From the NCBI GenBank assembly GCA_905178155.1, contig CAJINV010000008.1:3931420-3995419 (forward strand): a DNA stretch of 64,000 bases, in the 5' to 3' direction. The notes beneath the pieces are model-generated. The model made no database searches and had not been told where the DNA came from. It saw nothing but the letters and a program-made list of their open reading frames with translations. The position numbers were made by a program, and so were the translations under genes. Within the stretch, counting starts at the first letter, position 1. Every line of letters starts with the position of its first letter. This DNA comes from Amoebophrya sp. A120. Taxonomy: Eukaryota > Protista > Dinoflagellata. This document shows, piece by piece, positions 17,010 through 62,766 of the stretch.

Positions 17010-20000
17010 ATGGAGGTTCTGCTCCACCACGTGTCTTACGCGGATGTTTACTTCCACCTCGAAAACGGGGAGACCAAGCAGACGCTGCGGCTGCGCGCCC
17101 ACCGAGAGCGGCTGGAGCGGGTTTGCAAAAAGGTGTGTGCCTTTCTGGACCAGGATTTGGTCAACGAGAACGAGGGGGACGACATCCGGGCGAAGAACTG
17201 CACGACCAAACTATGGCGCGGGGACACGGGGGAGCAGGACAAGCAGCGGTCGCCAAAATCCATGGCCAGTCCACGCCCGGGGTTCGCGCAACATCGTGAC
17301 TCGAAGAACAACGCGAGCAAAGACTCCAATCGAGTTTCCCCGACCAGCGAGCAAGGAGGAACATTAGCGGTCGTCGGCCTCGGCGGGGGTGGCGTAGACA
17401 ATAACAACAGGCAGTTTTCGGCCGACAGCAGCGCAGACAGTAGCGCAGACGAACAGGAAGTTTTCCAGGATGTAGCACCTGAAGATGCTGCGGACCACGT
17501 CGAACAACAGAATGATCCCACGAGGCCGCCGTCCAGCTACCCCTCGGAACGGGAGAGCAGCACCCGGGAATTGGGCGCTTCTTTGGTGAGACCCTCGCTA
17601 GAGGATGTTGCGGGATGGAGCAGGAGCACTGGGAACAAGATGAACAATTCCAACCCGCCGGACGGGAGTGGCTCTACTTTGGGGTCCTTTCAGCTGGCCA
17701 GCCTACCGACCAGCCCGCTAGACGAGCAGGTACACTCCGGTGCGCCGGCGTCCTTCGTGCAGCGCTCTAGCAGTACCAGCACGCAAGTGCAGGTTGGGCA
17801 GGCGAATCCCGACAATACCAGCGATATCTGCATCGGGTTCGACCTGCAAGGTATGGACCAACCATTTTACAATCATGCCTCGACGCAGGACAGTATGACC
17901 ATAAATTTAGATGGTGGAAATACTACGAATTCTAATGGCGCAGTTCTTACGTCGGCGTTGAGCGGTGCGGGTGTCACTTCTTCTCTCCCGCAACTGAGTA
18001 AAAACTCCGCATCATCTCCAACGCCCGCACCTGCTTGCGCTGCAACCAACATGCCAATGGCCGCCACAGCTTCTTCAACCACCACAAAAACTACCATTTC
18101 GCTGCAGCTTCTCGCTGAGGCCTTTTTTGACGGTGACGCGGAGCACGCGAAAAAGTTCAAGCTGAATGCCATTGTGTTCCCCGTTTTCGCCTTGGCCGTC
18201 GAATCCTGGCTGGAGTCCATCCTGGTTCGGCGGGGCGGGTGCGACTTTCTGAAGATCTACTTCCTTTCCGGCTCGCACCAACGAACAAAAAGGAGCGAAA
18301 CCTTCACCACCGAGTCCGCGGCCCGGTGCCTGGTGCGGTTTGCGGAGCGCGTGCTGAAGACCCGGTTTTTCGCTGCGGCAACTCATTCGAACGCCAGCAG
18401 TGTCAGGAACTCCGCCCATTCAACAACGACAGAAAATACCAAGGTAGTGCCTCCGAAGTGGCTCCGGGATTCCACCAGCAGTCGTTTGGACGCGTTAAAC
18501 ATCTGTCTGCGCTGTATCAGAATGAAAAATCCCCCCTCCCCATATCAAAACGAAGTTTCTGATGCTGGATTTTCGTACACAAATCAGATTCGTCTTGCTG
18601 GCGAGGACTGCAGGCCCATACTAAGCCTGAGCAGACAGATTTTAGCCAAGGCGCTTTGCATGACAGACGTCTACGCTGTAGGTGCAACAGCATGACAAAC
18701 TGCCTGTAGAGTGCGGCGGAGCTTGTGGAGTTGCTTTCATGCAACACAGAGATGATTTGTGGTCACAAATCAGCAGCGCAAATTTTCGAAGGCGTGCCTT
18801 GTCGATATGGGGAGGGGGGATTTTTCCTTTTCATACGCTGCATTCACAGCGGCCCCGGGGTGTTTCTGTACGACGAGAATGTGCGGTTTATGAACAACGA
18901 GTGTCTACCCTATTTGGATTCGGATCGCCAGCAGTGCGTTCAGTACTTTCAGAAGCACTTCCCGCACAGGGACTGGGCACAGGTATAAAGGCCACGAATT
19001 TGATGGTCTTATCGAGTGTATTAACGTTGTAGCCATGTTTTTCGGAAGATTCACACCTTTTATTGATTTATATAATGACGAGACGAGCTCATTAACGATG
19101 TATGACCACCTGTGCTGGTCCTCGACTGGTGCCAAAGCCAAAAGTGACTCAATTACAACTCAGGAATTCGCTGTCTCCTTCATTCTCGCCGAGGGTGCGC
19201 CCGCCCGCGTTTCGGCGATCACGCAGTCCCTGCACCAGTTTCGGCCCAATTACGTGCATATCCTGCGCCCCAAATCCTACCGCGACGAGCCCTTCCTCCG
19301 CGCCGACGGGGTCCAAGCATTACCCTTTGACAAAGCCTCGGTCGCCCCTGCCATCCCCATCAATGGCCACTTTGTCAGTAGTTTGAATTTGTTTTTCCAG
19401 CAAGGAGCTGGAACATCAGGCAACATGGTGATGAGCCCAGGAGGCGGAATGCACAACCGGAGCCTGCTGCAGCAGCGGGAGCGCACCTACACGGGCGTGG
19501 CCGAGCTGGACAACCGCATCAGGCTCGTTTTGAAGGAGATGCTGGCCCACAAGAAGGCGGTGGAGCAGCTAGGATCCTCCAGGGACGCGGAGCTAGCCGG
19601 GTTTTGGCTTCGGAAGACGCGGAAGCCGGTTTTGTGCGTGTTGATGGTGGAGAAGGAGGAGGAGGTGCAAGTGGTCAACAGTTCCCAGCAGAAACTCGCG
19701 AAGGTCCGCAAGTTTTACCGCGGCCTGAACCTCGAGGTCAGCATGCCGACCGGGTCGCTGTGTGCGGAGCGGAATTGCATCGGCCAGGCCGTCGCCGCGG
19801 ATCCGACCTTGCGGCGGGAGCACATAAAACTCGTCGCGGTCCTCTCGCTGCCGCAAATTGGCAGTGGGGCGTCCTCGAGCAGTGCGGCGAATGTGAACAA
19901 GATGAGCAATCCTCATTTTGCAGGAGCTGCGACTACATCGATACTGAGTGACGCGCTTTTGTCGCCCACTTTTCAACCGATGAACAGCGGTGGAGTAAGT

Positions 20001-21620
20001 GGGGCGATGAATGGATATGGTATTCCTGGAATGCAAGCCTTGTCCTCGGACACCACTGGGAACGCCGCGGCCAGTCGTGTGGTGGGTAGCTACAACAACC
20101 ACGACAGTGAACTAGCAAAATTAGCGCCGGAAACGCCACCGCACCCACCTGCTCGCACACAGCACTCGTCACGAACGGCGACGCTGCTGAGTTCGGAAAA
20201 CGAGACTGATGTGCAGTTGCGAGGACTGGACACAACTTCTGCAGAAGAGGAGCAGGACGAGCAGGGGGAAGCAAAAGTAAAAATAGCACCACTTGCTGCA
20301 CCAACAAACGACACGGCGACTGCAACGGCTGGCACAAGAACAATAGAAAACACCCAACTGCTCGAGCAGGCGAAGGGTCTTATCGAGAAGCAGAACGAAA
20401 CATCGTCGAGGCTAGTAACCATGAAGCCACCTCCCGGTGGAGATCATGGAGGGCCACCGTCTTATGCTGCTCCGGTGAAACTTGCTGAAACTTCTACCCC
20501 AGCTGGTGGTGCACATCTTCAGGAGCAAACAGCAACAACACTCCAAATGTCCACGTCCATATTGTCGACTTCCTCAACGACCTCAAACAATAAAAGCCCT
20601 CAACTACGAGGACTAGATCAGAACGATTCCTCGCAGACGCAGTCGCCACGACAGATGGAACAAGCACAACAGCACCATGTAGTACAACTTCCGCAGCAAC
20701 ACCTCGTCCCCTCGCACCTTGTGCTCCATCCCGAACTAGAAGATCTTGGTCGGGTAGGAGATGTTGGAGTAGGCACTTTTGGTGGCTCAAGTGGCCAAAA
20801 CAACAGGGCCGCGGAGGATCTCGGCTCGGTGCCGGTCGAAGACCTCGACTCGCCGATGTCAAACAGCTACTCCACCTCGGTGAACCTGAATGGAGGCGGT
20901 TTTAGTATTCATCCAGAAGATAACCACTACAACACGACGCCGCATCAACTACCACTACAGGAACAGGGGGTTTTGTCGCCGGTATCTGCCGCAGCCACAG
21001 GAGCTTCGGCAAATTTCATGATGATGAATACCACGGTACTAAATAAAATTGGTGCCACGAGTACAACGCCATTGAGTGGCGGGCCACCGACGTCATCAAT
21101 AAATCAACCGACAAGCACAACAAGTCGGTACCGTATGAGCAGCGCTAACATGATGTCGCCATCGCAGCTGCAGTCCAGTACCTTTCTTCTCGACGACGTT
21201 GACGAGACGAAGCAAACCAGTGCTGGTGCAACCACGAGCACCTTCACGCCAGGTCCGCGCTCCTCGGCGGGGCAGGCCAGCCTGCAGGACTCCGCAGTAG
21301 AACAAATGGCGCCGTCTGCTGGTGGCGTCACCTCCTCGTCATCCAAGCTCGTGCCCGCTCGCAGCTCCTTTGCCTCCACCTCCACAACGAGTCGCGGTGG
21401 GTATAATTCCGCCGCGTCTCCATCGCTCTGGGGAAGTGGGGCAAACCAACCCTGCAACCACCGCAAAATGTCCGGCGACCTCAACCCCATAAACCCGTGT
21501 GGTGCCTGCATGGAGTGGCTCCGGAAAATCTCGGAGAAAGAGCCCAGTTTTCGCGTGATTACCTTTGACAGCTACGAATGCGAAGCCATCTACGTGAAAC
21601 GGATCGATCAGCTTTCGTAG
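17010..21620 (+). CDS. Cytidine/CMP deaminase-like Zn-binding protein with long low-complexity insertions
   Basis: GLNLEVSMPTGSLCAERNCIG at ~19720-19780 and NPCGACMEWLRKI at ~21490; exons joined via introner 18515 and GT-AG intron ~18983-19163. Confidence 0.8.
18515..18835. mobile_element. Introner (family B)
   Basis: TIR ...gaaaaatcccccctccccatatc / gatatggggaggggggatttttccttttcata; TSD cgctg; removal gives CL-RC-IHSGPG. Confidence 0.92.
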
Positions 21621-22916: not shown

Positions 22917-23079
22917 TATCCTGTGCAAAAGTATCGCACTCGTAGTAATCCTCGCAATTATGCATTACAGATTTTCTTCTTAACCTAAAGCCGCATTACA
23001 AATTCTATTTTTCATGCTGAGCAGGAAATTTGTCATGCGATTTCCACTAAGTAGTTGTGCGATGCTTCTGCATTTCATA
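22917..23079. mobile_element. Introner-type element (family C), host gene unclear
   Basis: Starts tatcctgtgcaaaagtatcg like 51342 and 58816; ends cgatgcttctgcatttcata; near-TSD gaacg/gaagg. Confidence 0.8.
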
Positions 23080-23180
23080 GAAGGCATCCAGTTGGATGCT
23101 CGTCTTCGCGGCCTGATAGGCGATTCGTTTTGCGCATATCAGTCAGTTGTCAGTCGGTGCGTCTATGCATATTTCTATCA

Positions 23181-23213
23181 GACCAAGGAGGACAGCTTGA
23201 TGTAGTGACTCTT
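23181..23213 (+). repeat. 33-bp dispersed motif, copy 1
   Basis: gaccaaggaggacagcttgatgtagtgactctt. Confidence 0.95.
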
Positions 23214-23481
23214 CGGTTGCAGAGGTGCCGGATATTTCCATTCTCGATGGCGTCGTCCATCCTCTGTCGCAGCACTGGTTCAAAGTCTTGAATGACGATT
23301 TCACTGCAGACGAGGTTGCCGCCGCTGTTCGCAACAGGAAGAATAGCGGCCAAACTGACGACTTTGATCAACTGATGCATTTGTACAAGGCGCTGGAGAT
23401 GATCAACTGATGCATTTTTTTTTTTTTTGACTTTGATCAACTGCTGCCCCAGGTGCAGTTGTAGAGAGTGGACTCCATCTT

Positions 23482-24829: not shown

Positions 24830-24862
24830 GACCAAGGAGGACAGCTTGATGTAGTGACTCTT
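24830..24862 (+). repeat. 33-bp dispersed motif, copy 2
   Basis: Identical to copy 1; continues ggcaca. Confidence 0.95.
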
Positions 24863-25687: not shown

Positions 25688-25953
25688 TATGCATTGCAAA
25701 TATGTCGGGGCCAGGGAATTTCTGATGCTAGTTTATGTATTCTCGGCGGCGAGGACACGGCAATAGGCAGCCACGCGCGGCGAGCTTCTGGGCTCCTTGT
25801 CCTCTGTGATCGTGTTTCGCTTTCTGCGTGATAAATTACTTACATTCTTGTGCGACAGGCAGGAGGCTCTCTCCTGCTCACGCACTACAGGCTCAGGAGC
25901 CACGCGTGACAAGCATGACAAACTTCGAGACCCAGACATATTTGCATTGGATA
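25688..25953. mobile_element. Degenerate introner-type element (family D ends)
   Basis: tatgcattgcaaatatgtc / gacccagacatatttgcattggata; TSD eroded. Confidence 0.75.
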
Positions 25954-26337: not shown

Positions 26338-27225
26338 AATATTGTTATGTAGGTCAGTTTACCACAGCCGCTTGATGCTTTAAATACGTTGACAAAGTGA
26401 AAACTTACATTTGATTTTGCATGGCTAACCACATTCCAGTGACGCAAGACTATTCTAGTCTGGCTCACATGGGGAACAAAGATGGTGGGGCACGCGCGCG
26501 CGTCGGTTCGTTCTTTCGGATTCGCAAAATGGCATGAGAGCGAGATAGAAGAAAATCGCGCTCGTTTTTTCAAATTAATGTGTAGCAGCAAAAAAAAAAA
26601 TTGTCGCGCACGCGAAGCCGTCGCGCAGCCGTCCGGGCCGCTCGGCCGCCCCCGCGCCGGGGCGCAGGGCGGTGCCGCTCGCGCCCCTGGAAGCCTTCCG
26701 CTCCACCGAGCGCACCGTGGCGCCGCGAACGCAGCGAAGAGGCGCGAGCGGCCCGGGCGGTCCGAGCGGCGCAGCCGCCCGGGCCGCTCGCTGCGCCGCT
26801 CGAGCCCGTCCCGCTCCCGGCAGCGGCCCGGAGCGCCGGCAAGGGCCCGAGCGGCCGGAAGCGCCCCGAGCGGCGCGGGCGGCGCCAGGCCGGAATTCCG
26901 ACCGGCGCGAGCGGTCGTGGGCGCGCGGCGGCCGGAAGTCTCGGGGCCTGGCCGCTGGTGGTCCAGGTGTTCGGGCCACATGGTAGGGGCCCCAGGCTAA
27001 GAGTGCAGTCGCATTTTCGAAAAAAGTGCGGATTTCTCGGTGTTAAATTTGAAAAGCGGCAAGACCCTGGCTCAGATCATGGCGGCGCGCTGTGCGGCCA
27101 ACGTGGCGACCCCGGTCGGAGGCGCGGCGCTTTGGACGGATCCCATACATGACAAAAAATATTTAAAATCCTGAACACATTTAAAGACCCTAACGGTTGT
27201 GGTAGAACTGACCTACTTGAATATT
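26338..27225. mobile_element. Putative old TIR element with very GC-rich interior
   Basis: aatattgttatgtaggtcagtttaccacagccg...ctttaaat (26338-26385) is an imperfect inverted copy of atttaaag...cggttgtggtagaactgacctacttgaatatt (27179-27225). Confidence 0.6.
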
Positions 27226-27297
27226 GACTTTTTCAATAATTCTTGAGTTTTTCTCTGTTTTTCTTGTGTTCGATGATTCTCACCTCTAACCCTGCTC

Positions 27298-27330
27298 GAC
27301 CAAGGAGGACAGCTTGATGTAGTGACTCTT
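27298..27330 (+). repeat. 33-bp dispersed motif, copy 3
   Basis: Identical to copy 1; continues gtaagc. Confidence 0.95.
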
Positions 27331-28441: not shown

Positions 28442-28474
28442 GACCAAGGAGGACAGCTTGATGTAGTGACTCTT
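28442..28474 (+). repeat. 33-bp dispersed motif, copy 4
   Basis: Identical to copy 1; continues ggcacgaagtt. Confidence 0.95.
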
Positions 28475-40627: not shown

Positions 40628-41430
40628 ATGTCGGGACAGGCGCTCGTGGAGAAATTCTCCAAGACTTACTCCGACAGGTATAGATCGATCCCTGCCAACA
40701 TGTGGCACTTATGTGGTTCTAGTCGTCTATCTGTGCTGCAGCTGAATCAGAAACTATAACTAACAAAATCGACGACAAAAACTCAAATAAAGAAAAATAA
40801 GGCAAACGAAGCACGACCTTTGTTCATCATCCCGTATAAGTCACTCTTTCTCCATAAAGATCGATCCTCATGATGAAGCTGGAACACCAACATTTTCTCT
40901 TCTATCAGGTTCAATTTCGTGACCCATTCCCCACCCAAGTTCAGCATGCGACCTCGCGTGAATTTTGGCGCGATGCCCGCCTTGTCCGACGGCGGGAAGT
41001 ACACGATAAAGAGAAAAAAGTCCGCCATAGACCGAACCTTTCGAAAACACGTAAGAAGTTGGTCCGCGACCGATGTCAACGTGTGGTTTAAGGACGCGCT
41101 CACGAGAAGAGACCGGACCGAGCTGCTGTCACATATTCCGCCGATCGAAAGCGAACTGGATGGGAAGGAAATATTGACCTGGACGAAGTACTGCTAATTA
41201 TTTTTCTGATGCATATAAAAAAAAGCACTTGCACTACAATGAATGAACAAGTTCCAGTGCAGCGTGAGAAAGCTGTGCGTGAGAAATTTCAATTGGTTAT
41301 GTGAATAAAGAACTCAAATTCTATCAGGGCCAAGTTTCGGGACGATGTTTGCCGTGGAGATGGAGAACTGGGAGCTAGTTTGTGGTCAGAATTGCGGTTC
41401 AACATAGAGGAATATCTCGCCATATCCATT
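40628..41430 (+). CDS. Multi-exon segment with SAM-like motif (may belong to the downstream gene)
   Basis: VRSWSATDVNVWF...LDGKEILTWT resembles a SAM domain; boundaries uncertain. Confidence 0.4.
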
Positions 41431-42093
41431 GCAAATATCATGTCTGAGGCGGCTGGACAAATGAAAAAGTTTTTCATTTTCATCGTCCAGGTTTTTTTCC
41501 ATCATGCTCGCCGGCGACGGCCAACACGTTGCCTGGAATGCAGCGTCTTGTAGTATTTTTACATACTGATACATCATGATATAGGAGAAGATAGTGATAG
41601 AGGTAGTACTTCGAGAGCTTATTTCACGCACCAGAAGGCCTTATTCTTCATGAGGGGTTGCCACCTTTCAGCGTGACGTGGCTACATCTGTCGAGCATCA
41701 CAAGTTTACTCCTTTCCAGACGCAGGAGACATATTTTCAATGCATACACTACGCACGGCTACGACGATCTGGCGCACGCCGTGAACTTCACAAAGTACTA
41801 ACTCCTGTTGATGTAGCACTAGTGCGACTGCGAGTGCCTCTCTCTGTTTACAATAACAATCGCCACACATGCACATGGTCGTGCTGATGCACTAGTCATA
41901 GCATGTTTGATGTTTCAAAATCAAAAGCAAAACTCTCACGAAGCAGCGACTTTCTTGTCGTTCTTGTTGCGCCACAACTCCTCCAGCGCGCAGGTCACTT
42001 CGCTTGTCGGGCGTCGAGTTGTCTGATGAAGTAGAAGTGTAAAAACGATTCTATTTCGAGATGATGAAAATTATCCCACCTCCGCTCCTGCAG

Positions 42094-43127
42094 GTATTGC
42101 GCCCCCCGTTGGTCCTGTCGCGGCATGCTGGACAAGCAGAAGAAGGGCACCGAGCCACCCGGCCCCGGTCGCTACCGCGCCCCGAGCTCCCTGGGCATGT
42201 CGGAATCCGGAAAAGGCCACCCAACCATACGGCAACTCGGACGGTTCGCCATGCCGCAAGCAGAGAGGATGGCAAAACCCAACAAGAACCCGGGTCCGGG
42301 GGCCTACTTTACGCCGGTCGGGAAAGACCACAGGCTGGTCTGGGCGCCAAAGTGGAGCGTCACAGGAAGGGGGGACTGTACTTATCCTTTGTTATTCTGT
42401 TAATATTGTTTCATTGTTAAACGTTTTGGTTTTCCATTCCTTCGGATTCATACTTCTCGTTTTCTCAAGAGCAAGCAGGTTTTTGTACACCACTACTTAC
42501 ATTTGAAAAAATGAACAGCCGTCCTGGTAAACAAAGAGGGCGGCCCGCTCGGTGCTTACGACGTCGACAAGCTGACCCGAAACGGCCCCGTCACCGTCCC
42601 GGCCTGGAGTTTGAAGGCCCGCATAGAAGACAAGACTGTCGCGCAGCGCAGCCCTGGACCGGCACGCTACGACCAGTACGGGAGTAAGAAAAAGATGCCC
42701 GGCGGTATTGTGAGGAAAAAAATCCCCCCTCCCCATATCGAAAAGGCACACCTCAGAAAATTTGCCATGCTGATTTGCGACCACAAATCGTCTCTGTCTT
42801 GCAAGAAGGCAACCGCACAGGTCCCGCGGCATTATGTAGGCGGTTCGTGATGCTATTGGGCCTACAAAGTCGACGCTTTTCATGCTAATCACCTAGGCCA
42901 ACACCTCTCTACTCGGGCTTGATATGGGCCTGCAGTCCTCTACTGCAAGAGAGATCCGATTTGTGTAAGCAAATCCAGCATTTGAGACCTCGTTTCGATA
43001 TGGGAAGGGCGGATTTTTCCTTTTGATAGGCGGCGACTTCTGCTACTGGCCCACCCAGGGGGAGGAAACCTCCAAGAACATCACGCGGAAACCCGCCTGG
43101 TCCTTCCGCACGGCATGGCGGAAGTAG
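42094..43127 (+). CDS. SHIPPO/ODF3-like PGP-repeat (axonemal) protein, 3' exons
   Basis: PGPGRY, PGPGAY, PLGAY, SPGPARY with APKWS/PAWS motifs; introner removal gives MP-GG-DFCYW...PAWSFRTAWRK*. Confidence 0.75.
42706..43028. mobile_element. Introner (family B, inverted relative to 18515)
   Basis: TSD ggcgg; TIR aaaaatcccccctccccatatcgaaa / tttcgatatgggaagggcggattttt; interior is the reverse complement of 18515's interior. Confidence 0.9.
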
Positions 43128-44485
43128 AATATACAGTAAAACATCCTGTTTGATATATACGTTGTAATTACATCACGGCTTTTTTTCTCCAGAAGTAGAA
43201 GCCTGTGTCCGGTGTACAATAAACTCCCGTTTTGCGGGAAGATACAATCAGTTTGACGTAAATTTACCTCGAATAAAGACAATTTGAGCTAGCATTCGAC
43301 TCATAGTTATGGCCTTAATAATATCGGCATTTTTTGGCTAATCTTTGCTCATCACATTTTTGACTAGCTACTTTTTCGTTTTGATTTATGTACGATACGC
43401 ATGTGCATTGTTCAACCGGCATAATTCTGAAAAATGTACACTTGGCTTTGAAAATCATGGCAAGCAAAAGGATGGATTGATCCGCCTCTTCTTGAAGATG
43501 GTGGCTCTACTTGTATAATTGTTGGCATGCTACTTGGTGCTTGAAAATTATGACAGACTAGCATCGGCTACGCAAAAAAGCTCTCTTTCAGACAGCCTCT
43601 TCGCCTGCGATATCCAATGTAGAAGTACACATTGTGAGGCGTCAGAGGAACGTGGTCTGTGAGACCAGCACCCGACATCGTCCCCGTCATCAATCTGCCG
43701 GACGAAAGGATCTTCGAGGCGGGACCGGCGGGCGACCGCACGCACACAGATTTTAGTACTGCGTGGGATCCTCCCCGCGAGGACTAATAGTACGTAAATA
43801 CAAAGATGGAGTAGAGCGTTTTTATTTGCGTCTTTTTTTTTGCCGAGCGCGAGCCGGAATTTTTGGAATTCTGATCTTCGCGAGATTCAGTGCCGGTCGT
43901 TCGAAACGTCGCCCTGTGGAGCACTCTACTTCATTCGGTCTTTTTTTTCTTCGTGCAGAGAGCAGCGCATGATCTGCTCTACAAGCCATAATGGATGCTG
44001 CGCTTGCAGTTCCGCTGGATCACGATGAAGACGTTGCGATAGCAGCACGAGGTTCTCGGTTCCTTCAATTACCTCAGTACCCCCTTAATATTTGCTTTGG
44101 GCACTGGGCACCTCACCATTGATGTTTCACTTGGTGGATGATGACAGGGCTCTGCGAGCTATTACGGGTGTCTATTGTCTTAATATTTGCTTTGAAGATT
44201 TTACTTTTAGGAGGTCTCTTCAATGTCTTCATGGTGGTGGTCAGAAAAATAAGTAGTCAATTAGTGACGAGTGTCTCAACATGTGTTTGTAACATGTACA
44301 AAGATAGATGTTCAGGAACCATCGTCCGATATTAAAACCGTTTGTTAGAGGCACCAACGCAACATCATGTGGCAGATAACCATCTTTTCCATGTGGCGCA
44401 CGAGATGAGGATGATTTACTTCGTTTGAATAAACCCATTCTGAGCTGCTCCTCTCCGTGGTCCGTCGCAGAGAAATAGAAATAGC

Positions 44486-46821
44486 ATGGGCCAAGCCGTG
44501 TCTGCGCTTTCCCAGAAAGTCAAGCCCAACGCCAGTGCTTCGTCCGTCGTTCCGTCGCCCGCGAGTAAGCGCACTAAGGAGCTGCTGGACCAAGAGAATG
44601 AACAGCCGTGGATTACCGCGCCCTCCTTGCAGCACCTACGCTCCATTGTGGAACAGGCGGGGACAAGGATAAACTTGAACAGCTTCGAGGTAAAGGCGAC
44701 GATCGGAAAGGGAAATTTCGGCCGGGTCCGGATGGTGCGCTTCAAAAACTCGCCCGACACCACCCCGTTCGCGCTCAAGATCCTGCACAAAATGAAAATC
44801 GCGAACGAGTGGGGCGGCAGCATTTCCCACGCGGCCCGGGCAGTTTTGCGGGAGACAACAATCTTGCAAGCTGTGGAGAACCCGTTCATTGTGAACGTTT
44901 TGAAGGTACTGAGCGATATTGCACTCGTGAAAGAACAAGAGCCGTAAGCTTATGAAAAATTTTCTGTGCGCTATTTCTTCTACTTGTTGGACTCGTTACG
45001 TTCGTTCTGACTTCTTCATCAATAATTACGTATTCTGTGCTCCTGGTGGAGGAGAAGGCATTGGTTGATGTTGATCGGTAATCATGTACGTTCGCTGCGC
45101 CACCATCTTTTACTAGGTCTTCCATAACGAGAAGAAAGTTTTCATTCTGATGGAGTTCGTCAATGGCGGGGAGATGTTCCGGCTGATACACAAGACCAAC
45201 GGCCTCACGTTGGACCTGATCCAGTATTTCGGCGCCGAGATCGTGATCACAATGCGGCACCTGCATGACCGTTTCGTTTGCTACCGCGATCTGAAGCCCG
45301 AGAACGTGTTGCTCGACTATCCTCTGTAAAAACGCCCTCAGATGACCACAGTCGAGGTCGGAAAGAACCTGCTATACAGTTTCAGTCCAATAAGTTTTGC
45401 TTTTGGCTGCTGCCGCGCATGACAAGTTTGAGTCTGTGGTGTAGTACTACGGGGACGGTTTTTCAGAGGATGCTGGTTGCTCCGGCCACATCAAGCTGAT
45501 TGACTTTGGTTTGGCGAAGATCCTGGAAAAGCAGAACGATTTCAAGACCCGCACCTGCTGTGGCACCCTGTGCTACCAAGCGCCGGAGGTCATTCTCAAC
45601 AAGGAGTACTCGTTTCAAGTCGACTGGTGGGGCGTTGGCGCCTTCATTTTCGAAATGATGAGCGGAAAAGCGCCCTTTGGCAACGACAACACCTTCGCAA
45701 TACAGCAACGTACCAACATATTCATTTTCATATCTGATTCACATTTATGGATTTTCGAGTTTTTCCTTGCACAACGCCGCCTTTAGCTTGGTCGTGTGTT
45801 TTGTTGGTCATCAAGAAGCAAACAAAAACTTCTCCTCGCGCATCCGTGGTTGATCTCTGTGAGAATCAATTTATGCAGCGGACCCTGCTTTTATTTCTAT
45901 GAAGAACCATCGCCATGCATGATGCAAAAAGAAAAACAATCAAAATTTGCACCAAAAAAAAGGTATCCTCTCCACCTCCATCCTGTGGCCAAAATCCCGA
46001 GACGTTGCCCTGGTGCGCAACAAGCCGCTCTCTTCTATGGCGTTCTCAACTGTTACATTCTCAACTGTTACATGAATTCGCGATGCAAGAATGGCAAAAG
46101 TCAAAGGGGTGACCTTGCGCGTCTAGCATGACAGATTTGGCACAGATTCTCAGCCTGTTTGGCTCTTCGAGAATTTGTCATGCGGAGCAGCTTGATCGTA
46201 TCAGTTCTAATTGTGATTTTGCATGACAAATCGTGTAACAGTTGAGAATGTAACGTCTGAGAACGCCATATCTTCGCTCATTTCCCAGTTTCTGACGCAG
46301 AAACCGGAAAAGCGGCTGGGATCCGCCGATCCCATGAAGATCGAGAAGCACCCGTTCTTTCAAACGATCTACTTCGAGTCCATCCGGAAACGCGCCGTCA
46401 AGCCACCGTACCGACCGAATCTGTCCTCCGCGGAGGACTTCTCCATGTTTCCAAAATACGCCGAGTCGGTGGAGGACTCTATGCCGGACCTGTATCACGT
46501 GAAAAAATGTCTGGGTCTGGAAGAATGGAAGGCTTGTCATGCTTGTCTGGCATGACCCATGATGCTTGTATAATGCATGACCCAGCATCACAGATTTTTG
46601 GAAAGCTTCCTGATGCCATTTCCGCATGACAAATGCCCTCCTTGCGTAGCACAAATGTGGCTCCTCTTGCTGGTCAACATGCAATACAGATTCTTTTAGA
46701 GTCCAAAGCTAGCATCACAAGTTCCAACTTTCCAGACCCAGACATTTTTACATTTGATAACCTGAGTAAAAAGGACAAACAGGCCTGGATCCACGAGTTG
46801 AATATGCCGCTGTGTCATTAG
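44486..46821 (+). CDS. AGC-group, PKA-catalytic-subunit-like Ser/Thr kinase
   Basis: MG start, GKGNFG, FALK, MEFVNGGEMF, YRDLKPENVLLD, GHIKLIDFGLAK, CGTLCYQAPE, VDWWGVG, KRLG, HPFF, VKPPYRP; two GT-AG introns (44906-45116, 45710-45962) plus three introners. Confidence 0.92.
45318..45472. mobile_element. Introner (family A-like ends, TSD diverged)
   Basis: tatcctctgtaaaaacgccc / gggacggtttttcagaggatg; removing element plus 5 nt restores VLLD-CSGHIKLIDFG. Confidence 0.85.
46036..46270. mobile_element. Introner (family E)
   Basis: TIR tatggcgttctca...gttacattctcaactgttaca; TSD tcttc; removal gives NKPL-SS-LISQFL. Confidence 0.92.
46493..46759. mobile_element. Introner (family D, inverted relative to 61629)
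   Basis: TIR aaaaatgtctgggtctggaa; TSD acctg; removal gives MP-DL-SKKD. Confidence 0.92.
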
Positions 46822-47736
46822 AACCCATGTTGAGGCCGCCGCCGCCTATCGTAGTATACAAACCAAAATCAAAATGAAATATAAGATCAGTGGCAGTATT
46901 TCAACGTGTAGTTTTTGGAGGCAAACTCCTTGAACAACAGTAACAAAAACAAATTTTCTGGTAGTGGTAGCTTAGAGTAAAAACCTACAGCACTGGAATG
47001 CTGTCAGGGCGTCGTGTTTGAAATGATATATCCATCTTGTGCCAGTTGTAGTGTAGCAGAAACTGAAAAATGGGCTGACTCAAACTCTTGTATGTGTATG
47101 ATGCGAATAAGATATGTCCATGATTGTAAAATGGCTTCGAAAATCAAAATTCGAATTTCTCAATGTCAACTCCCAAGGTCGCGGCGAAGGAGGGTCCTCT
47201 CTTTTCTTCTGTTCATCGATCCGTGTTTCTTCCTTGGTTCTGCTTGAGTTTTGAGGAAGAAGAATTCGTAAAAAAGCTCGTCGTTCTCATCTCGTGAAAC
47301 AAGGCAACGACCCAGAGAGAAAGTAAATTCATCCATCGCGCTTGAAGGGAACTCTTTGTGCAAGCTCGTTCTGGGAGAAAAATTTGACCACCACCACGAC
47401 ATCAAGACCATTATGACTCGAATTACGTTTAGTTGCGGTAGAGGTCGTCGTCGTGGTGGTCCAAAATCATCTGTCAAGTCGCAAACGTCGTGCCATTTGT
47501 TTTTATGCTTTCTTGCAACATTCCGTCGTAGAAGGAGAAGCAGATCACGATCCGGTGGTTTGTACATGATTGTTTCTCCAGTATTCCTTTCTGCTTTGGC
47601 CACCGCAGTTGAGGTTTCATTAGTTTTCAATTTCATCATTCAAAGCACCAACATTATAAGATCCGGAAACAGTACGCGGTAAAAATTTGAATTTCGACCC
47701 CGGACCTCGAGATTTTTTATCTTGTACGAGCAAAAC

Positions 47737-49314: not shown

Positions 49315-52300
49315 ATGACAAAGGCGAAGTTGGAGCGCAGCGGCGAGAAGTCTGCCTCGGTGCAGCCGCTCCTGCGGCTTGCAGGCACTGCAGCGGTTCT
49401 TCTTGTAACCGATACCGCATCTTTTATTTCGCGCGCCGGTCCTTGCAGCTTGTTGTTTGCGGAGGTGGCAGCTGCAGGAGCCGTGTCGAACACTACCGCA
49501 AAGATCAACGCTGGCTCATCTACCTCGGCGACAATGTCTTCAAAGACCCCGGAAGTTGATGCACCTTCCTCGGCGGGAACTGCCGAAACTGGCGCGGAGT
49601 GGCGCCGACAACTGACGTCGAACTCCACCTCCGGCTCCTCGGCCCCGGCGGCGAATTCGAATTCAAATTCTGCATCCTCGACTGGAGGTGGCCAAACAGC
49701 AGCTACAACAACAGCTCCGGCCGTGGGAACAAAATCAACCGGATCGGCGGGTGGTGGAACGACGTCCTCACCTGGCCAGACGCAGTGGCAGTCGACCATC
49801 GTGACTACGACGACCCCCACTGTGACTACTACTCCGGCACCCCCTATCCTGAGTAAAAATGCCCCCACACCACCAGAGTCAAGATGGGGAATCCGCTAGA
49901 CAAATCAGCCACCTCTGGTTGTTTCGCATGACAAGTTTATCCTCGTAGTGTAATCCTGCTTAGCTAGTTCTGAAGCATCACAGATGTAGCATATCATGCT
50001 GATTCTAGCATCATAAATTCCAAAACAGGACTAGAGCATGGCTGTCATATGGCTCCGCATGAGAAACTTTTTCGGCATGCAGATTTGCATGACAACTCTG
50101 GGGTGGGGGCATTTTTCACTGTAATACCCCCCACTTCGTACCCGCACCCCTGCGACGTGCAGTGCACGGACTATGACACGCTGTCGGGCGTGCCGACCAG
50201 TGTGACCAACTACCTGCGGTACCACGGCGCGCCCGGCGAGGAAGTGGTCGTGTTTCCAGTCAAGGAGGAAAAGAGTCTGGCACTGAGCGGGTACGAGACG
50301 GAGTGGCAGTGCTTCGCAAAGACGACGCAGGCCGACACCAAGGCTATTGCGGTCTGGAAGACGTACAAGCTCGCGTCGCAGGGGGCCACCCAGCGGAGCC
50401 GGTGTGTGCGCAAGTTGAACGGCTTTGCGGACAACAACTGGTGTCAGCCGGACGTGTATCTTCCAGGAAAAAACACCCATCCACATCCAATTTGTCATGC
50501 AAAACATACATAAAATTCTGCGTTTGTCATCCAAAAAATGGATGTGGATGGGTTTTTTTCTGTGGATAACGTGACCGTGATGCAGCGCGTCTACATGGGA
50601 ACCGCGGGCGCTTACGAGCCGACGGCGATCAGCATGACCGGTACAACCGGCGCGACCGCCGCGAACGCCCGCATATGCGACATCGTCGGAGCTTTGAATT
50701 GCCAGGCGGGGAACACGCTGCCTTCGAGCTTGTCGGGCAAGAAGGTCTGGCGCTACTACGAGAAGAGCGTTTTCGCCCTCACGAGCGGTGACTTGAGCTA
50801 CAAGCGCCCCTGGCAAGCGTCGTCGGTGTCCTTTCAAAACCTGGACCTCTACGGCTTCCATTTCCCGACCGAAGCCATGCGAAAGGCGGTGATCGCAGAC
50901 GCGCGAGCGAAACTCGGGACGGACCAGACTGATGCGAGTAACGCGCAGCTCTCGGCTATGGATGTGTCAGGATTGAAAAAGACAAAGTTGAAATAACTTG
51001 TAATGCATAAAATGGATGAAAGTTGTGACCCAGTTTCCAAGTGGCGCATGAGAAACTTGGGTAAAGCCGAAATCCAGTCTGTCATGCTGTTTGGGTAAAG
51101 ACGATGCCTTTTCTCATGCTACTTTAGCAGCTCAGTTTCTCTTTCTACCCCTCAACAGGCTTATAATCTGCCTCACTTGCCTACTCTGCAAGACAGGCAC
51201 CTTGAGGGCTGCATTTTATGCATGACAAACTATTTCAACTTTGAGGATTTCAAACCTGACACTCCCATATCGGCAGACGCGCAACAACAGGCACGCGCAC
51301 GCCGGTCGTTGGCGATGGCCCCCTTGTTGTGGAAAGAGCAGTATCCTGTGCAAAAGTATCGTAGTCGTACTAATCGCAATCTTGCATGACAAATTAACCT
51401 TTTTACCTGAATTAGCATTACAAATTCCACTTTTCTTTCTGATAAAATTTGTAATGCAATTTATACTAGTACGATACTTTTGCAATGCATAAGCAGGACA
51501 TTCTGGGGCCGTGCGACATGAATTGGGTCCATCAAATGGCGTTTCCGAGCGGCACGGCGGATTTTAGAGGTGAAATCGAAGTGGACAGTCAAGTCATCGA
51601 AAATGCCAGCTTGGAAAGGCTTCGGCAGCAGTTCCCAACGATATGCATTTTTGCAAATATGTCTGGGTCTGGATGAAACTTGTGATGCTAATTCATGCAT
51701 CTTCACAAACTGACTCTTATTTGCAGCCATGCATGAGAAATTTCATCTGAGCAGTTATGTCAACATGCGTAACCCGCATCACAAATCGCGTTTATTTTGC
51801 TGGACATTACCAACATTTGCCCACGCAGAGCCGTCCTCTTGCCGGACACAGCCAACATCTGTCCGAAACAGCCTAGGGCCAAGACGACACCGTGAGGACG
51901 ACCACAGGGGGTCCGTCTCAATGAAATGAAACGAAATGAAATGACAGAGGGTCGGCCCTATTCCACAACATGCATCACAGAGTTCACGGGCATGCGAGTT
52001 CTTTAGCAATACAAATCTCGCAATCTTCCAGACCCAGACATATTTGCATTTGATACACGACGGTTGGGATCGATCTGCCGGCAAGCGAGTACCAGGGCAG
52101 CGGTTACCTGACGCACTACATGAACATCGCGTACCGCATTCGCTACGCCCCCTTTACTTCGGCCGACGGGAAAGACCCGGGGAAGTTTCTCGATCGTGCG
52201 TATTTTCCCGCGGGCGCGACCGGCGCCGCGTTGGGGCAGCGCTCCTACCTGGATTCGCTGTTCACGGTGAAACTCTCCGACCTGCAGCAGGCCACGATCA

Positions 52301-56521: not shown

Positions 56522-59004
56522 ATGGAAGTCTTCTTCTACGTCCTCGCGAACGGGTTTTTCCTGCTTGCCGGTCTATTGCTGCTGAGGGACAGCACGAGAA
56601 AAAATGAATATGGGAAACCGGTGCAAGTCATGGTGGCCAGGGATACACAGGTAATACGAGATATTTTTGCATCAGTGATTTTCTTTAAGCTTCGCTTCTT
56701 GTTGCACGGGAGTCTTGCACCATGATGTCAAGTTCAAGATTTTCATCGTGCTCTGGATGTTGGAAGTGGAGTACGAGTATGATTGTGCAAAAAAATCAGA
56801 TAATGTTTTTTCTCGGCACGCTCTTGCGTTTCTACTGGAGCGCATCACCACCGGCAGTATGGAGCAACGAGGGCCCGATCGTGCGAACCCTGTGCCAGGC
56901 CGACATCTGCATTTCGCCGATAGTATGGGGCTGCGTGCTCGCGTTCGTGGCCATGCAGCAAACCAAATACTGCGAAAGTTTGTCCCTGCCACTGCCGCTC
57001 TTCAAGGACAGCACCAATGTTGCGGCGCTTTCCGCATCGGGGATGGCGAAGAACAGAATAAGATTGCCACTCAACTAGGCAAGGCAAAAACTTTTGAAAT
57101 ATATTGTGCTTCTGCATCTGCTCTCCATTTTTTTCGACGATGTAAAAAAGCGTCAGCGTCGCATGCATCGATTTTGGACATGATAATGCTGCAATGAAGA
57201 GGTTTGCACGAACACGCCAGGCGAGGCAGAGCCTGTCTCGGGCGGGACAAACACGAAACGCATTAGCATGCTGGAGAATCTGATTTTCCCACCTTAATCT
57301 ATGTGTCTTTCGTCTCTACTGTGGTCTCGCAACAAATAGTGCATCTACATCTACTTCAATCGAGTCTCGGCATGCGCTGCCGGTGTCAATAAACAAGCAA
57401 TACTAGACACTGAACACAAATCTGGGACGAGAACAACTGGCAGGGCACAATTTTCGCATTCTATAACACCTGGTTTACTCTCACAGTCGCTACGCTGCTG
57501 TTGTCCATCTTCCTCCACCACATGAATCCCCCATCCGTATGAACTGTAATTTCATTCTTGTTACCGTAGTACGGATACTACCTACTTGATGTACTTCTTC
57601 TACTTGCATTTTTGCATTAACAAGTTCTTATAGGCAGCTAAATTTCCTATGCAGCTGTCCCAAACTCAAACTTTGTCACGCATGTTGTTCCTGATTTGCG
57701 TCGCGTCTGCATGTACGGCTACGGTACTAAAAGCTTGTGATGCATAACCCACTTGGCACATTGACGAGGAGGATGACCAGCCCTGGCCAATGGCAGACGT
57801 GTCCGTAGTCTGGAATATGCTCCTGGACTGCGTTGCCATGGTATCGCTTATTTGAAATGTTTCAAGAACACAGTGATGCTCCACCGAATCTTCTTACTCT
57901 GAATAAACGCATAGCACAGCACCCGCCTTAATATCATTTTGCTTTTACTGCTGGATCATCAGACAACTCATATCTCATACACTTATGCGGCATCTCATCA
58001 AGCAAGAAGATATATGATGCGGCCTTTTGAAATCAATAACAATATCAATTTCAACAGTTTCCGCAACTCTACATCATCTACGTTACCCCCGAACCACCAT
58101 CAGACGGCGCAGCCAACTTTGTCGGAATCCTCTGCGTTGCACGGGTCCTGCGTATGGTTGCATGGGGCCACATCATCTTCACTGCATGTACTATTCGATT
58201 TCGCAGCTGCGGCCGTCATTTTCTTTATTTCATCATGCATCTTCAGGAGCGGTTGGTCCATGCTCCGTACCACAGAGAGAAAGAGCCAGGTGGAGCCAGC
58301 ACATGCGTACTAACAATTAGGCAAAATATTAATATGCTAATTACGCACGGCAAACATGAAAAATAAACAGGGGTCCGGTCCATTGGTGTTCCGGGGTTTT
58401 TGTGGTGCTACGTACTGCCGGACTTCTGCCACAGTTTGCTGATGGGCAAGTACTTGTGGCTGTTTCTGTATGGAAGCGTCAGGTGTGAAATCGACAAAGT
58501 TGAAATGATTTGTCATGCATAAAATGGAAATACCAGTTGGAAGACCAATTTCCACGCTGCGCATGACAAATTTTCGGAGCACCGGAATCCAATTTGTCAT
58601 GCTGTTTGGGCGCAGGCAGAAGACTGCTTTTGTCATGCTCCTTTAGCAGCTCTATCCCAAACCCTAAATAGGCTCACAATCTGCCTCTCTTGCCATCCCG
58701 GCAAGACAGGCGCTTTATGTCTTGCATTCTATGCATGACAAATCATTTCAACTTTGACGATTTCAATCCTGACAGATCCATATTCTGGCGCGAATCAAGA
58801 AGAACCACCTCGACCTATCCTGTGCAAAAGTATCGTACTCGTATAAATGCAGGTCTTGCATTACAAATTTCTTTGCCAAGGCAAATCAGCATTACAAATT
58901 TTATTTCTCATGCTGAGAAAATTTGTAATGCATTTATACGAGTACGATACTTTTGCAGTTCATACGACCGCTGGATGCACAACGTCGACGGAGAGATGGT
59001 TTAA
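56522..59004 (+). CDS. ERD2/KDEL-receptor-like multi-TM protein
   Basis: Reconstructed exons give ARDTQ-IMFFLGTLLRFYW, LLDCVAM-FPQL, ANFVGILCVARVLRMVAW and YVLPDFCH, matching ERD2-family motif order. Confidence 0.75.
57538..57746. mobile_element. Degenerate introner
   Basis: tatgaac...taccgtag / ctacggta...tgcata; near-TSD atccg/accca; removal plus 5 nt restores NPPS-xWHIDEED. Confidence 0.65.
58469..58782. mobile_element. Introner (family F, homologous to 50957)
   Basis: TSD ttctg; TIR tatgga...gtcagg...caaagttgaaatgatttgtcatgcata; removal gives LWL-FL-ARIK. Confidence 0.92.
58816..58964. mobile_element. Introner (family C)
   Basis: 29-bp perfect stem tgcaaaagtatcgtactcgtataaatgca; TSD cgacc; removal gives NHLD-RWMH. 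Confidence 0.92.
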
Positions 59005-60879
59005 CCGGACATCAAGAGAAGTCCTTTTTGATTTTGTCGTAGTGGAGGAAGTTGTAGACAGTGGAGGTCAGACTAGTTTTGAGTTTGTAGTCAGGATGAA
59101 GAACTTCTTACAATTTATATACAGATCGAATATCAGGTCGTGGTGGAAAAGGAGAGTCTTTCCTTTTACCACTAGCACTTCGGAGGTTATTTCTGCTGAT
59201 AGATTATCGGGGCGCTTGTTCTGCAGAAAAATTTAGAAAAAAGAAAGCAGCTGTAAAAGGTCGTAGATGAAGTGGTCGTGGCGCTGTGCTTCACTCCAAG
59301 AGACCTACGAAGTTACAGCTAGTCGCCACTCAACACTTTGACATGCAGCTTCAACACAGCAATCTGGATGTTGGTGAGAAATCTCCTTGTCCTGACGAAA
59401 CTTCAACCTTAGCAAAAAAAAATCAAAATAAACTTACATTTTACCATTGTTAATCGCAAAACTGCTCTGCACACACAAGAACTTGTTACCATTTTTTACG
59501 AGAATATAGAAATAGAAGCAAGTACTAGATCAACGCTAGCGCCGCTGGAAAGCTTATGGAGGACAACACAGACGACAGGGACGAGCGCACTGGCGAGCAA
59601 AACAAACTGGAACCGCAGCGCTTATGTACGGCCGCAAGGACGACAGCTGGAGCTGTATAACTGTACACAAAGAAAACTGTAGGGCGGAAATGAATTGTCT
59701 ATAAAACACCTGTCCTCACGAATCGCACGACCCCCAGCGGTAGACCTAGTTTTGTTGACTCGAAACTCAAACTTTGTTACCAAATATGACTCTGATTACG
59801 ATTGCACAGACACTGAAGAGAGAATGAAACACTTAATGCTTTTTTGATGAATGATTTTTTTTAGCTCGAGTATTTTTCTGTGGGGAAAAAAATTAGAAGC
59901 GAATGCGAACGCTTTTAATAACGCTATTGTTTCGAAGGACTCGAATGAGTTTACAACTCTTGCAATTTTGAAAAACATATGCTATGTAAAAAAAACCAAA
60001 AAAAACTCTTGTTTTATGAAGGTAGCTCACCTCTATTTATTTTTTCTGAGCAAGACGACGAGCAGCTTTAGCTTACGGAAAGCGGCCATCCCGCTCCCAT
60101 TTCAAATCCAAGGGCGAGTGCCACCTTGTGATTGGGTAGAAGTTTCAGCTGATCCTCAAAGTGGTGTTCGCTCCCTACTGGCAGAATACACGCGTAGCAG
60201 ATCGTGATGTGGTGTTGTTGTTGGTGAATGTTGATTTGTCGTTTGTGATAGTCGCCAGCCGATGTTCTTGGCCTGTGGGTGTCACTTTCTCGGCGCCGTC
60301 TTATGCGGCATCGTGTTTCTGACGGCGGTGGTGTCCTCGAGAGTAGCTGCGCGCAAACTAAGAACATCAGAATCAGATAGAATTCGACGAAGTTAAGTTT
60401 GTTATGTCACTGACGACGTCGTTGAAATAGAAATTTGAAGAAATTGCTGTTGGATGTACTGTTAGTTGCTCCCTCTAGAAGCTGCTCTACATACTATTTG
60501 GTCGTCGTGTAGCCGGATGTCAGGAGCAGGCCCACCAGGCTTGCAGGGCTGCAAGTAGAAGTGCCGTCCGTCGATCACCTAGCTACAAGTCGCAATGTAA
60601 ACATAGAGGGCATGTTGATGATCAAGTGGAAGTGGCGACAGCACAGGGCATCGCGAAGGCGAACGCATACTTACTAGAAGCATGGCGTCCTTACTTGATA
60701 TCAGCACGATCACATTACCACGTTACCAATTATCGAGTTTTTTGCTTCATGGCAGTAGAGCTGACGTAGAATTGTGAAAGTAGTATGTAAGCAGACGCGG
60801 CCACCGTAGTTGGTTATCGCCCGAGAAGTGGAAAACTACAGCCCGTCGACAGTACTACAACTACCACTTCCTGTGCAAA

Positions 60880-62766
60880 ATGAGTACCACATCGAAGAAG
60901 GCGGTGACGATGTTGAAAGACCTCTTGAAGTCCTCCTGGCTTCCGAACTTTCACAAGCAGGAGTACGACGAGTGCATCGTGGAGATCTCCCGCATGTACG
61001 AAAATTATCTGGATTGCACCAACCACCTGGAGCACCTGGAGTCCGAGTACGAGAGTATGACAATTGCAACAGCATGATCATGATACTCGTATAATAATTA
61101 AAGAATGCAAGTCTTGCATGATACAAGTACAACATTTTCACCTGATGAATCAGCATGACAAATCCGCCCATTTTTCCTTCTGAACAAATTTGTGATGCGA
61201 TTTATACGTAGTAAGATAGTTTGTCGCAAACATGCATAGAGAGGAAAAAGGAGCAGTTCGATGCCGACCCAGCGAGCGGGACGATGAGCCAGGAGGAAAA
61301 GGACACCCGAACCGCGGACCTGAAAAAGAAGCAGCAGGACGCCGAGACACGGTTCACGATGGGCCAGGTGATTTATGACACTGCACAACTCCCACTCCCC
61401 CTCATTTGTCATGCAAAACCTCAAATCCAGTCGCTGCCTTGTGGCACTGTTTGCATGACAAATTCCGGAAGCCCAAACAGTACTACATTACGCGCATGAA
61501 GTTGTCATGCACAAGCTCCACATGTGCGGGTGTTTGTATTGCTGCTCATGCAAGACAAATGAGGGGGAGGGGGAGTTGTGCACTGTCATATGATTTGGCA
61601 GGAGGACATCTTGCGGACGAAGCGCTGCTATGCATTGCAAAAATGTTTGGGTCTGGAAGAATACAAACTTGTGATGCGCATTTCAGAACACAGAAAAATC
61701 TCTCATGCATAGGTAGCAAAAGCTGCCCACTTTCTGTCACCAAAATGCGGGATTTGTCATGCGGAAGCGGCATGGCGGAAGCTTCTCGAAACCTGTGATG
61801 CTAGAGCTTCCATGCCAGACCTTCTGTGTCATGCAAAAACGGCATGACTCTGCCAGAGCCAGACCCAGACACTTTTGCACTTGATAGCTGCCTTCTGCAG
61901 TACCTGAACAAGCGGCTGCAGGTGATCCGAAGTACCAAGTGGGTGGAGGGCCGAGTCTTATCGGACGAAAAGCTTGCGAAGCTTTCCGCAGAAGAAATCG
62001 AGTACTTGAACAAGTACAACGACATTGTGGACGACTACATACAAGATTGGCTTCCGAACGCGCACGCACTAAACCTTCACAACGACTGCGAGCTGCAGCA
62101 GGTGGCCTTCAAGTGCATCACCATAGCGGAAAATCTATCCCAGTGCACAAGCAGAGCGAATCAACAACATCCCCACTCCGATCTCGTCCGCGTCATTTTC
62201 TTGTCGTGCTACAACTAGACAGGAACCAGGGTCATTCCAGCTCGTGGTCGTGGTGGTCATATTTTTTATCGTTCTCGGCATTAATTACTTAGCATTGTGA
62301 TTTTGTTTGCATGACATGCCCTTGGCAATGAGAGGGAGCAGGGGGCAAGTCCAAGTTCAGCTTGTGCAATTGAATACAATCAAGATGCCGACCACGAGGT
62401 GGTGTTAAGCGACGGAAGAGCAATAAAACTAATCCCGGGGACGACTTACAAGGTATGTCGAGTTGTATTTGAAAGTTCAATTTTCTACGTAGCACTAGCA
62501 CCCCCGGTATACAATTCGCACTCGCAGGTTGTCCTCGAGGTCCAGATTAGGCGGGTCTTGTTTACTCGATCACAGTCGTGCGCAGTCAAAATCACGCAGA
62601 AGAAAGGCGTAACATTGGCTAAGAACAAACCGAAATATAACCGCAGGTGCGCACGGAAGATGCGGAATTGCTGATCAAAGACAAAGTAGCAGTTTTGGCC
62701 AAGGGTTATCCAGGTCTGAATTATGAACTCCACCTCCGACTCTTCATTATAATTTGCAACGAGTGA
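60880..62766 (+). CDS. PSF1: GINS complex subunit Psf1
   Basis: After removing three introners: LPNFHKQEYDECIVEI, ILRTKRCLLQYLNKRL, LSAEEIEYLNKY, VRTEDAELLIK; 3' end approximate. Confidence 0.85.
61056..61238. mobile_element. Introner (degenerate, family C-like)
   Basis: tatg / cata ends; TSD gagag; removal gives SEY-ER-KKEQ. Confidence 0.85.
61374..61590. mobile_element. Introner (family G)
   Basis: TIR tatgaca.tgcacaactccc.ctccccctcatttgtc.tgc; TSD tgatt; removal gives GQ-VI-WQED. Confidence 0.93.
61629..61886. mobile_element. Introner (family D)
   Basis: TIR tgcaaaa.tgt.tgggtctgg; TSD gctgc; removal restores the conserved KRCLL motif. Confidence 0.93.

Follow-up and report, generated by a model that had tools for sequence, protein, structure and literature searches.

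Introner elements of Amoebophrya sp. A120 occupy genes in both orientations and are likely recognized by their symmetric ends

Introduction

Can one and the same element serve as an intron whichever way round it lies in its host gene and, if so, what is read at its boundaries? This question is raised by a 64-kb stretch of DNA from the marine parasite Amoebophrya sp. A120 (the window; all coordinates are those of its + strand), which contains four intron-like elements, E1 to E4, arranged as two pairs whose members are inverted with respect to each other, although all four host genes are, as an earlier reading of the sequence alone had stated, on the + strand. The elements are the published introner elements of A120, and symmetric terminal motifs or a terminal hairpin are likely to be the reason why they can be introns in either orientation.

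Results

Two pairs of inverted elements

Comparison of the window with itself aligned E1 (18515-18835, 321 nt) with the reverse strand of E2 (42706-43028, 323 nt) at 79.7% over 311 nt (E 1e-74), and E3 (46493-46759, 267 nt) with the reverse strand of E4 (61629-61886, 258 nt) at 68.0% over 266 nt (E 6e-10). The reverse-complement interiors described in the sequence-only reading were therefore confirmed, together with its exact coordinates and the shared words that it quoted. When 40 nt were cut off each end, so that the inverted repeats could not drive the match, the trimmed interiors of E1 and E2 scored 206 in inverted and 30 in same-strand alignment (best of 300 shuffles, 29), and those of E3 and E4 scored 55 and 19, respectively (best shuffle, 26).

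All four elements start with TAT, end with ATA and are flanked by an exact 5-bp direct repeat, which is CGCTG for E1 (18510-18514 and 18836-18840), GGCGG for E2 (42701-42705 and 43029-43033), ACCTG for E3 (46488-46492 and 46760-46764) and GCTGC for E4 (61624-61628 and 61887-61891). The terminal inverted repeats are about 33 nt long in E1 and about 50 nt in E3. E1 and E2 belong to family 0 and E3 and E4 to family 1 of the classification given below, with E1 and E3 in the reference orientation and E2 and E4 inverted. A TAT followed by seven variable bases and at least three A was found at both ends of E1, E3 and E4, and the A run at the 5' end of E2 is 1-2 bases longer than this motif. Throughout the window, 18 exact 5-bp repeats were observed among 3832 TAT-ATA pairs lying 40-600 nt apart, against 3.7 expected, and 21 TAT...ATA elements amounting to 6382 bp were recognized. 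A further candidate, at 60038-60493, was rejected as a chance pair, one RNA-type contig (see below) reading through its left end. A search of the window against Rfam gave no match.

Removal of the elements from RNA-type contigs

The loss of the elements from transcripts was followed in runs X3 to X6, which stem from two samples within a single study and which we guessed to be RNA (hence RNA-type); they consist of contigs and so carry no information on strand or efficiency. A further run labelled as raw RNA, X9, yielded 2 partial reads, which are uninformative in either direction. The clearest case is E1, for which contigs of X4, X5 and X6 join position 18509 to 18836, skipping 326 nt, i.e. the 321 nt of the element plus 5 nt, and the same records also skip the neighbouring GT-AG intron. 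The host gene of E1 (17010-21620, + strand) encodes a protein of 1367 aa (amino acids) with a deaminase domain (PF14421) and contains that canonical intron at 18983-19163; one of its exons has 100% identity to a protein of Amoebophrya sp. A120, and subtraction of E1 plus 5 nt and of the single GT-AG intron yields the 1367 residues of P0001 (CAD7958719.1) letter for letter. A near-identical partial duplicate of this gene, the paralog P0002 (96% over 473 aa), lies on the same contig, and RNA-type contigs represent both genes, with loose ends at 17766 and 19889. The X4 contig that bears the E1 joint extends without a break over 63 letters on the upstream and 665 on the downstream side of the joint at a depth of 67, and the part that distinguishes the window's gene from P0002 is covered at a depth of 35-39, so that the window's own copy appears to be spliced.

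E3 lies in a gene for an AGC-type kinase (44444-46825, approximate limits, + strand), which also contains canonical introns at 44906-45116 and 45710-45962 and two further elements at 45318-45472 and 46036-46270. Record 16 of X6 starts again at 46760, and the 720 letters unlisted in it correspond exactly to the predicted exons when E3, the two other elements and the two canonical introns are taken out. For E2, records of X3 and X6 pick up again directly behind the element, at 43029, preceded by 1488 and 1435 upstream letters, respectively; the host gene (42070-43130, approximate limits, + strand) has an open frame across the E2 site and PG-rich, SHIPPO-like repeats, the SHIPPO-repeat match (E 0.004) being weak and under the Pfam cut-off. 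E4 is found in a GINS Psf1 gene (60880-62218, + strand; the 3' part may hold further exons) together with elements at 61056-61238 and 61374-61590. A first protein search with this gene gave no match; PF05916 was above the Pfam cut-off and a Psf1 entry of the PDB matched with E 0.001. Removal of E4 leaves a single open GINS Psf1 frame that is 97% identical to protein P0121 over 154 aa across the site. P0121 starts in the tail of element 61056-61238 and continues straight across the sites of 61374-61590 and E4, and to judge from the sequence it looks like the unspliced frame of a close relative that lacks these two elements, i.e. that has empty sites. Removal is thus graded from a direct joint (E1) and an exact length count (E3) to a contig boundary only (E2) and a frame and protein match only (E4).

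The same pattern was observed in a gene with five elements on the + strand (49845-50126, 50457-50568, 50957-51269, 51342-51491 and 51642-52055), where removal of each element with 5 nt predicts 922 letters and 922 were observed (X3 record 12). Altogether, the element and exactly 5 nt are absent from RNA-type contigs for E1, E3 and seven other elements, and neither E1 nor E3 has a GT-AG register.

Ciliates excise elements from DNA, and a loss as precise as this one, which leaves one copy of the repeat, is independent of orientation and target and uses no GT or AG, might likewise reflect excision at the DNA level in some life stage, so that element-free genes are transcribed, as with the internal eliminated sequences of ciliates. 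The sequence-only reading had named this possibility. Nevertheless, in the DNA run X1 single-copy contigs with a depth of 41-54 cross without interruption from exon sequence into E2, E3 and four elements nearby (records 1-8), revealing no abundant element-free allele there, and element sequence is present in the RNA-type runs too. This counter-evidence comes from one DNA run, with 575 joints outside the display, and contigs lose rare variants, so that X1 is not proof of absence; even so, we regard DNA excision as most improbable.

Orientation of the elements in related loci

The tabulation of orientations that the sequence-only reading had called for was carried out on the window and on 119 loci (424 kb) of JACKZZ01 contigs, which had been fetched with one terminal word of family 0 and of which 39 were short. 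The best element copies in these loci are 72-91% identical to window elements, and the loci gave no long match to the window exons. Elements with perfect repeats separated cleanly by their terminal-repeat score, and the final set comprised 385 distinct elements, 370 from the loci and 15 from the window. Host strand was assigned by a self-trained coding model, which was confident for 227 of the 385 elements and gave concordant calls for neighbours in 146 of 150 cases; the window element at 58816 received a low-margin minus-strand call and was kept out of the confident set.

Clustering of the interiors placed 358 of the 385 elements in 16 families, with conflicting relative-orientation links in family 0 (28 of 4487) and in no other family. 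The two orientations with respect to the host occurred in ratios of 44:25 in family 0, which includes E1 and E2, of 13:20 in family 1, which includes E3 and E4, and of 12:13, 11:8, 13:3 and 10:10 in the other four large families, and both classes survived strand margins of 6 and 8 in all six. Removal of an element with 5 nt preserved the frame at 111 of the 114 scorable sites (347 examined), in both orientations and with the flanks scored separately. Independently of any strand call, neighbours of one family shared an open frame after removal in 14 of 30 cases when they lay in opposite orientation, and in 18 of 45 when they lay in the same one; in locus L032 a single frame of 250 codons contains eight elements, four of them from family 0 and in both directions. 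The claim that the same families provide introns in either orientation is supported, with removal demonstrated for E1 and E3, marked by a contig boundary for E2 and not observed for E4.

The elements can be very dense: L032 (1-8304) and L025 (1-8091) hold 16 each, which make up more than half of the DNA, with orientations and families mixed. Their interiors carry the motif TTGT-[C/G/A]-ATGC several times per element in all nine of the largest families, equally on both strands (445 and 416 matches), and this motif may be a binding site for a transposase or for a splicing factor.

Ends, target and stem

Each end of the elements opens with TAT and seven variable bases, followed by an A run and by about 20 family-specific bases, and the transcript therefore runs from TAT... 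to ...TTTT-N7-ATA in either orientation of the element. Over 189 elements, the sense 5' end and the reverse-complemented sense 3' end have nearly equal base frequencies. The proposal that a terminal hairpin or symmetric motifs underlie orientation independence is in agreement with this symmetry. The same reading had argued that orientation independence points away from the spliceosome; however, signals placed inside a terminal inverted repeat read identically after inversion, so that this property is compatible with a spliceosome, and introners of Polarella and Aureococcus provide a precedent.

A likeness between the sense 3' ends within each pair had also been taken as a hint of selection on the downstream end. 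The likeness is real as sequence, but symmetric ends produce it anyway. Among 1100 opposite-orientation pairs of family 0, 160 shared 14 of the 15 last bases and 131 shared 14 of the 15 first bases, and in family 1 the corresponding figures at 8 of 9 bases were 134 (3' ends) and 130 (5' ends) of 260, i.e. good matches are about as common at one end as at the other. Moreover, at positions 4-10 homologous ends were more alike than ends with the same place in the transcript in four of the six families, and equally alike in two, so that in those four the variable bases follow the element's own end and not the transcript. Selection on the downstream end is therefore not borne out.

The target is nearly free, with 170 different direct repeats among 189 sites. 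An ordinary spliceosome might still be at work if each strand of the element had its own branch point and if GT, GC or GA donors and AG acceptors were recruited from the duplicated target, which is the route reported for the either-orientation introners of Polarella and Aureococcus, and E2 can indeed be read as GC-AG in one register. In contrast, E1, E3 and E4 have no GT/GC-AG register, and with any register allowed GT-AG, GT/GC-AG and GT/GC/GA-AG boundaries are possible at 8, 11 and 17 of the 189 sites, when random exon 5-mers give 7.0, 11.6 +/- 3.1 and 21.2 +/- 4.1. Canonical dinucleotide registers are thus at chance level at the element sites, and recruitment of canonical sites is highly improbable.

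The predicted terminal stems are long and strong (z -6.1, -5.8, -5.9 and -4.9), although pairing would be predicted for any inverted repeat. In the explanation favoured below, orientation is immaterial because neither the interior nor the target is read, and independence of orientation and target confines the signals to the outer ~30 symmetric bases.

Position of the cut

A perfect repeat hides the position of the cut, and elements whose two repeat copies differ were therefore informative. The copies that flank 51642-52055 differ at base 1, and the X3 contig resumes at 52057, so that base 1 comes from the upstream copy, of which at least 1 base is kept. The best local evidence on the register is the worn element of the kinase gene (45318-45477 including the 5 nt, + strand), a 160-nt intron that ends in ATG and whose repeats differ at four of the five bases. 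Its exons abut at residues 140 and 141 of the kinase 1fot_A, and a conserved Asp of the kinase is intact only if at least 4 repeat bases come from the upstream copy. As this worn element is still removed with 5 nt, removal tolerates imperfections of both the repeat and the ATA.

The coding model was applied to 105 candidates with imperfect repeats, of which 39 were usable, with 3 more dropped for frame mismatch, and it placed the best register at 5 and the next at 4. The direction of mutation in 55 of 66 one-mismatch repeats gave symmetric rates and no register signal. With regard to published boundaries, passages of Farhat et al. (Table S4, PMC7789003) indicate that the nine commonest non-canonical boundaries of A120 all start with N-T, and those of A25 with TT; N-T starts fit a cut one base before TAT. 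We consider the retention of 4-5 repeat bases from the upstream copy a lead rather than a result.

Under a cut at TAT, the 189 confident elements interrupt codons in phases 0, 1 and 2 in 48, 84 and 57 cases, without the usual excess of phase 0, and these counts shift with the register.

Other features of the window

A larger element of 1298 bp (4650-5947) has perfect 30-nt inverted ends, the repeat ATCTG and an internal palindrome of ~410 bp (5097-5507). The 112-bp element 50457-50568 mentioned above has matching ends and may be a deletion derivative. The 796-bp element at 15247-16042, apparently intergenic, shares the architecture of the TAT...ATA elements but has a different terminal triplet (TAC...GTA); its inverted repeat measures 43 nt and its 5-bp repeat is GACGA. 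Two sequences with ends like those of family 1 (25688-25953 and 41423-41746) have unrelated interiors and decayed repeats (2/5 and 3/5), and are not clearly located in coding exons. A direct repeat of 33-41 nt that is not of the TAT...ATA type occurs five times at a spacing of 1-2.5 kb (23181-23213, 24830, 27298, 28442 and 29531), and the regions 54-864 and 26600-26970 are very GC-rich, internally repeated and partly palindromic.

Discussion

The elements show terminal inverted repeats, a target duplication of fixed length, a short non-coding interior and random orientation, which are the features of miniature inverted-repeat transposable elements (MITEs), and they are likely to be non-autonomous cut-and-paste transposons. 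On balance we favour, with some reserve, a scheme in which the element is inserted in the manner of a transposon, with a 5-nt stagger, and is later spliced out of the pre-mRNA. The spliceosome would recognize an N-T-A start and would measure the 3' cut from the paired ends. A transposase or integrase would make a 5-nt staggered cut at a nearly free target, and the element would enter either way round. Integrases leave 5-bp duplications, and an integrase-like enzyme such as that of Gozashti family 38 (see below) would presumably fit the duplication observed here. In the transcript, pairing of the ends is predicted to form a long stem, by which the two cut sites would be brought together. The 5' cut might then fall at TAT or one base before it, which would give an N-T-A start similar to a GTA donor whose first base is free. 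At the other end, cutting might occur 4-5 nt beyond ATA, at a place fixed by distance and not by an AG. Removal would be accomplished by a loosened spliceosome that reads the ends alone and not the interior or the target. The three canonical introns mapped in the window all start with GTA, to which the N-T-A start is similar, and according to parts of the account of Farhat et al. (PMC7789003) A120 retains U2, U4, U5, U6 and 83 of 89 spliceosomal proteins, U1 not having been found.

Several observations weigh against this scheme. In the relevant sections of Farhat et al. (PMC7789003) no A120 transposase was found and general mobilization by transposases was argued against. The identity of the cutting machine is putative, and the 119 loci contribute evidence at the sequence level. 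With regard to the stem, positions 4-30 of 188 elements contained 202 G-U and 221 A-C oppositions, i.e. no sign of selection on an RNA stem, and left-right covariation at positions 4-10 exceeded that of shuffles in only two of the six families and fell below it in family 0, a pattern that probably reflects subfamily structure. A G precedes TAT at 91 of the 189 sites against 83.5 +/- 6.4 expected, so that a GT-like start is not favoured. The register read by the coding model is weak, with 31 of 54 mismatches favouring the upstream copy (p 0.09) and position 1 showing the opposite tendency (4 of 10), and the boundaries in Table S4 may reflect the placement of ambiguous cuts by the aligner.

Some of the same evidence would suit a separate, non-spliceosomal RNA machine that makes its cuts at a fixed distance from the terminal stem before joining the exons, a mechanism proposed for the nonconventional introns of Euglena. 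Such a machine would have no need of GT or AG and would leave the target sequence free, the predicted terminal stems are strong, U1 was not found in A120 (PMC7789003, in part), and the spacer of 4-5 nt after the 3' arm resembles the 3-nt and 5-6-nt spacers described for Euglena in passages of PMC12501133. Against it, the CD'G-CH'G motif of Euglena is absent, the sense strand shows no excess of G-U, the next exon starts with a purine at only 107 of 189 sites, and the N-T-A start resembles the GTA of the canonical introns mapped here. A machine of this kind is the main alternative, although we consider it less likely. Removal at the RNA level that depends on symmetric ends is common ground between this alternative and the spliceosome with relaxed boundaries that we favour.

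As a more specific and still tentative proposal, the splicing code of A120 would ignore both exon sequence and intron interior, with a start at N-TAT and a stop 4-5 bases past ATA, the N-T-A start common to A120 (N-TAT) and A25 (TTA) being a degenerate GTA used without U1 and without a check of AG. If this were true, any copy at any site and in either direction would be a perfect intron at birth, and such a code would explain the cost-free spread of tens of thousands of introners.

The present results describe a real feature of an already described system, and inverted-repeat introners can be expected to work both ways, as is known from other systems. In the literature found, with subscription papers and theses outside its coverage, orientation independence is not stated for Amoebophrya; we did not find in print a demonstration of both orientations for Amoebophrya-type introners without GT/AG, or a reading of the cut position from imperfect repeats. 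This work therefore adds testable detail to a known system rather than a new system, and elements whose repeat copies differ offer a cheap genome-wide readout of the true cut from existing RNA-seq data.

The closest system is that of Farhat et al. (2021, PMC7789003), whose text describes, in the parts relevant here, 29,850 A120 introner elements of many families and a size near 240 nt, with inverted repeats that start with TAT-N7-A run, direct repeats of 3-5 nt and no clear splice dinucleotides, and states that more than 60% of Amoebophrya introns lack GT-AG, their removal being an open question. Organism, TAT-N7-A-run ends, direct repeats, non-canonical boundaries and division into families are the same as here. 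The inverted repeats given there measure 8-20 nt, whereas those conserved here extend over ~30-50 nt, and the position of the cut was left unresolved (legend of Fig. 3). In that paper, figures aside, the word orientation concerns gene order in its four uses in the main text and three in the supplement, and none refers to the orientation of elements. A120 families, one of them the integrase-like family 38, were also described by Gozashti et al. (2025, PMC12130899); in the portions of that study that concern them, they are elements with terminal inverted repeats and mostly non-canonical boundaries, and several families of 250-320 nt have terminal repeats of ~30 nt or more, a comparison made by description and not by sequence. 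The pipeline described there required 5'-to-5' similarity, leaving inverted copies untabulated, and that of Gozashti et al. (2022, PMC9860276), as far as its account goes, allowed matches in opposite orientation.

Outside Amoebophrya, introns in either orientation are reported in sections of Roy et al. (bioRxiv 10.1101/2020.10.14.339549) for classes 1, 2, 3, 6, 7, 8 and 10 of Polarella glacialis, and the same authors cite them, at second hand, for Aureococcus anophagefferens. Both orientations make introns there as here. In contrast to the A120 elements, where possible GT/GC/GA-AG registers are no commoner than in controls (17 of 189 against 21.2 +/- 4.1), those introners take their donors (GT, GC or GA) and their AG acceptors either from the element itself or from the duplicated target, which restricts the choice of target. 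The nonconventional introns of Euglena, to the extent covered by PMC12501133, are similar to the A120 elements in lacking GT-AG and in having paired ends, short direct repeats, cuts at fixed spacing and a probable MITE origin. They differ in their CD'G-CH'G motif, the place of which is taken here by TAT...ATA ends with TAT-N7-A run, and in the rule of a purine as the next exon base, here found at 57% of the sites in the 5-base register, with no repeat position above 63% purine. Unlike the Euglena introns, those of A120 still belong to repeat families.

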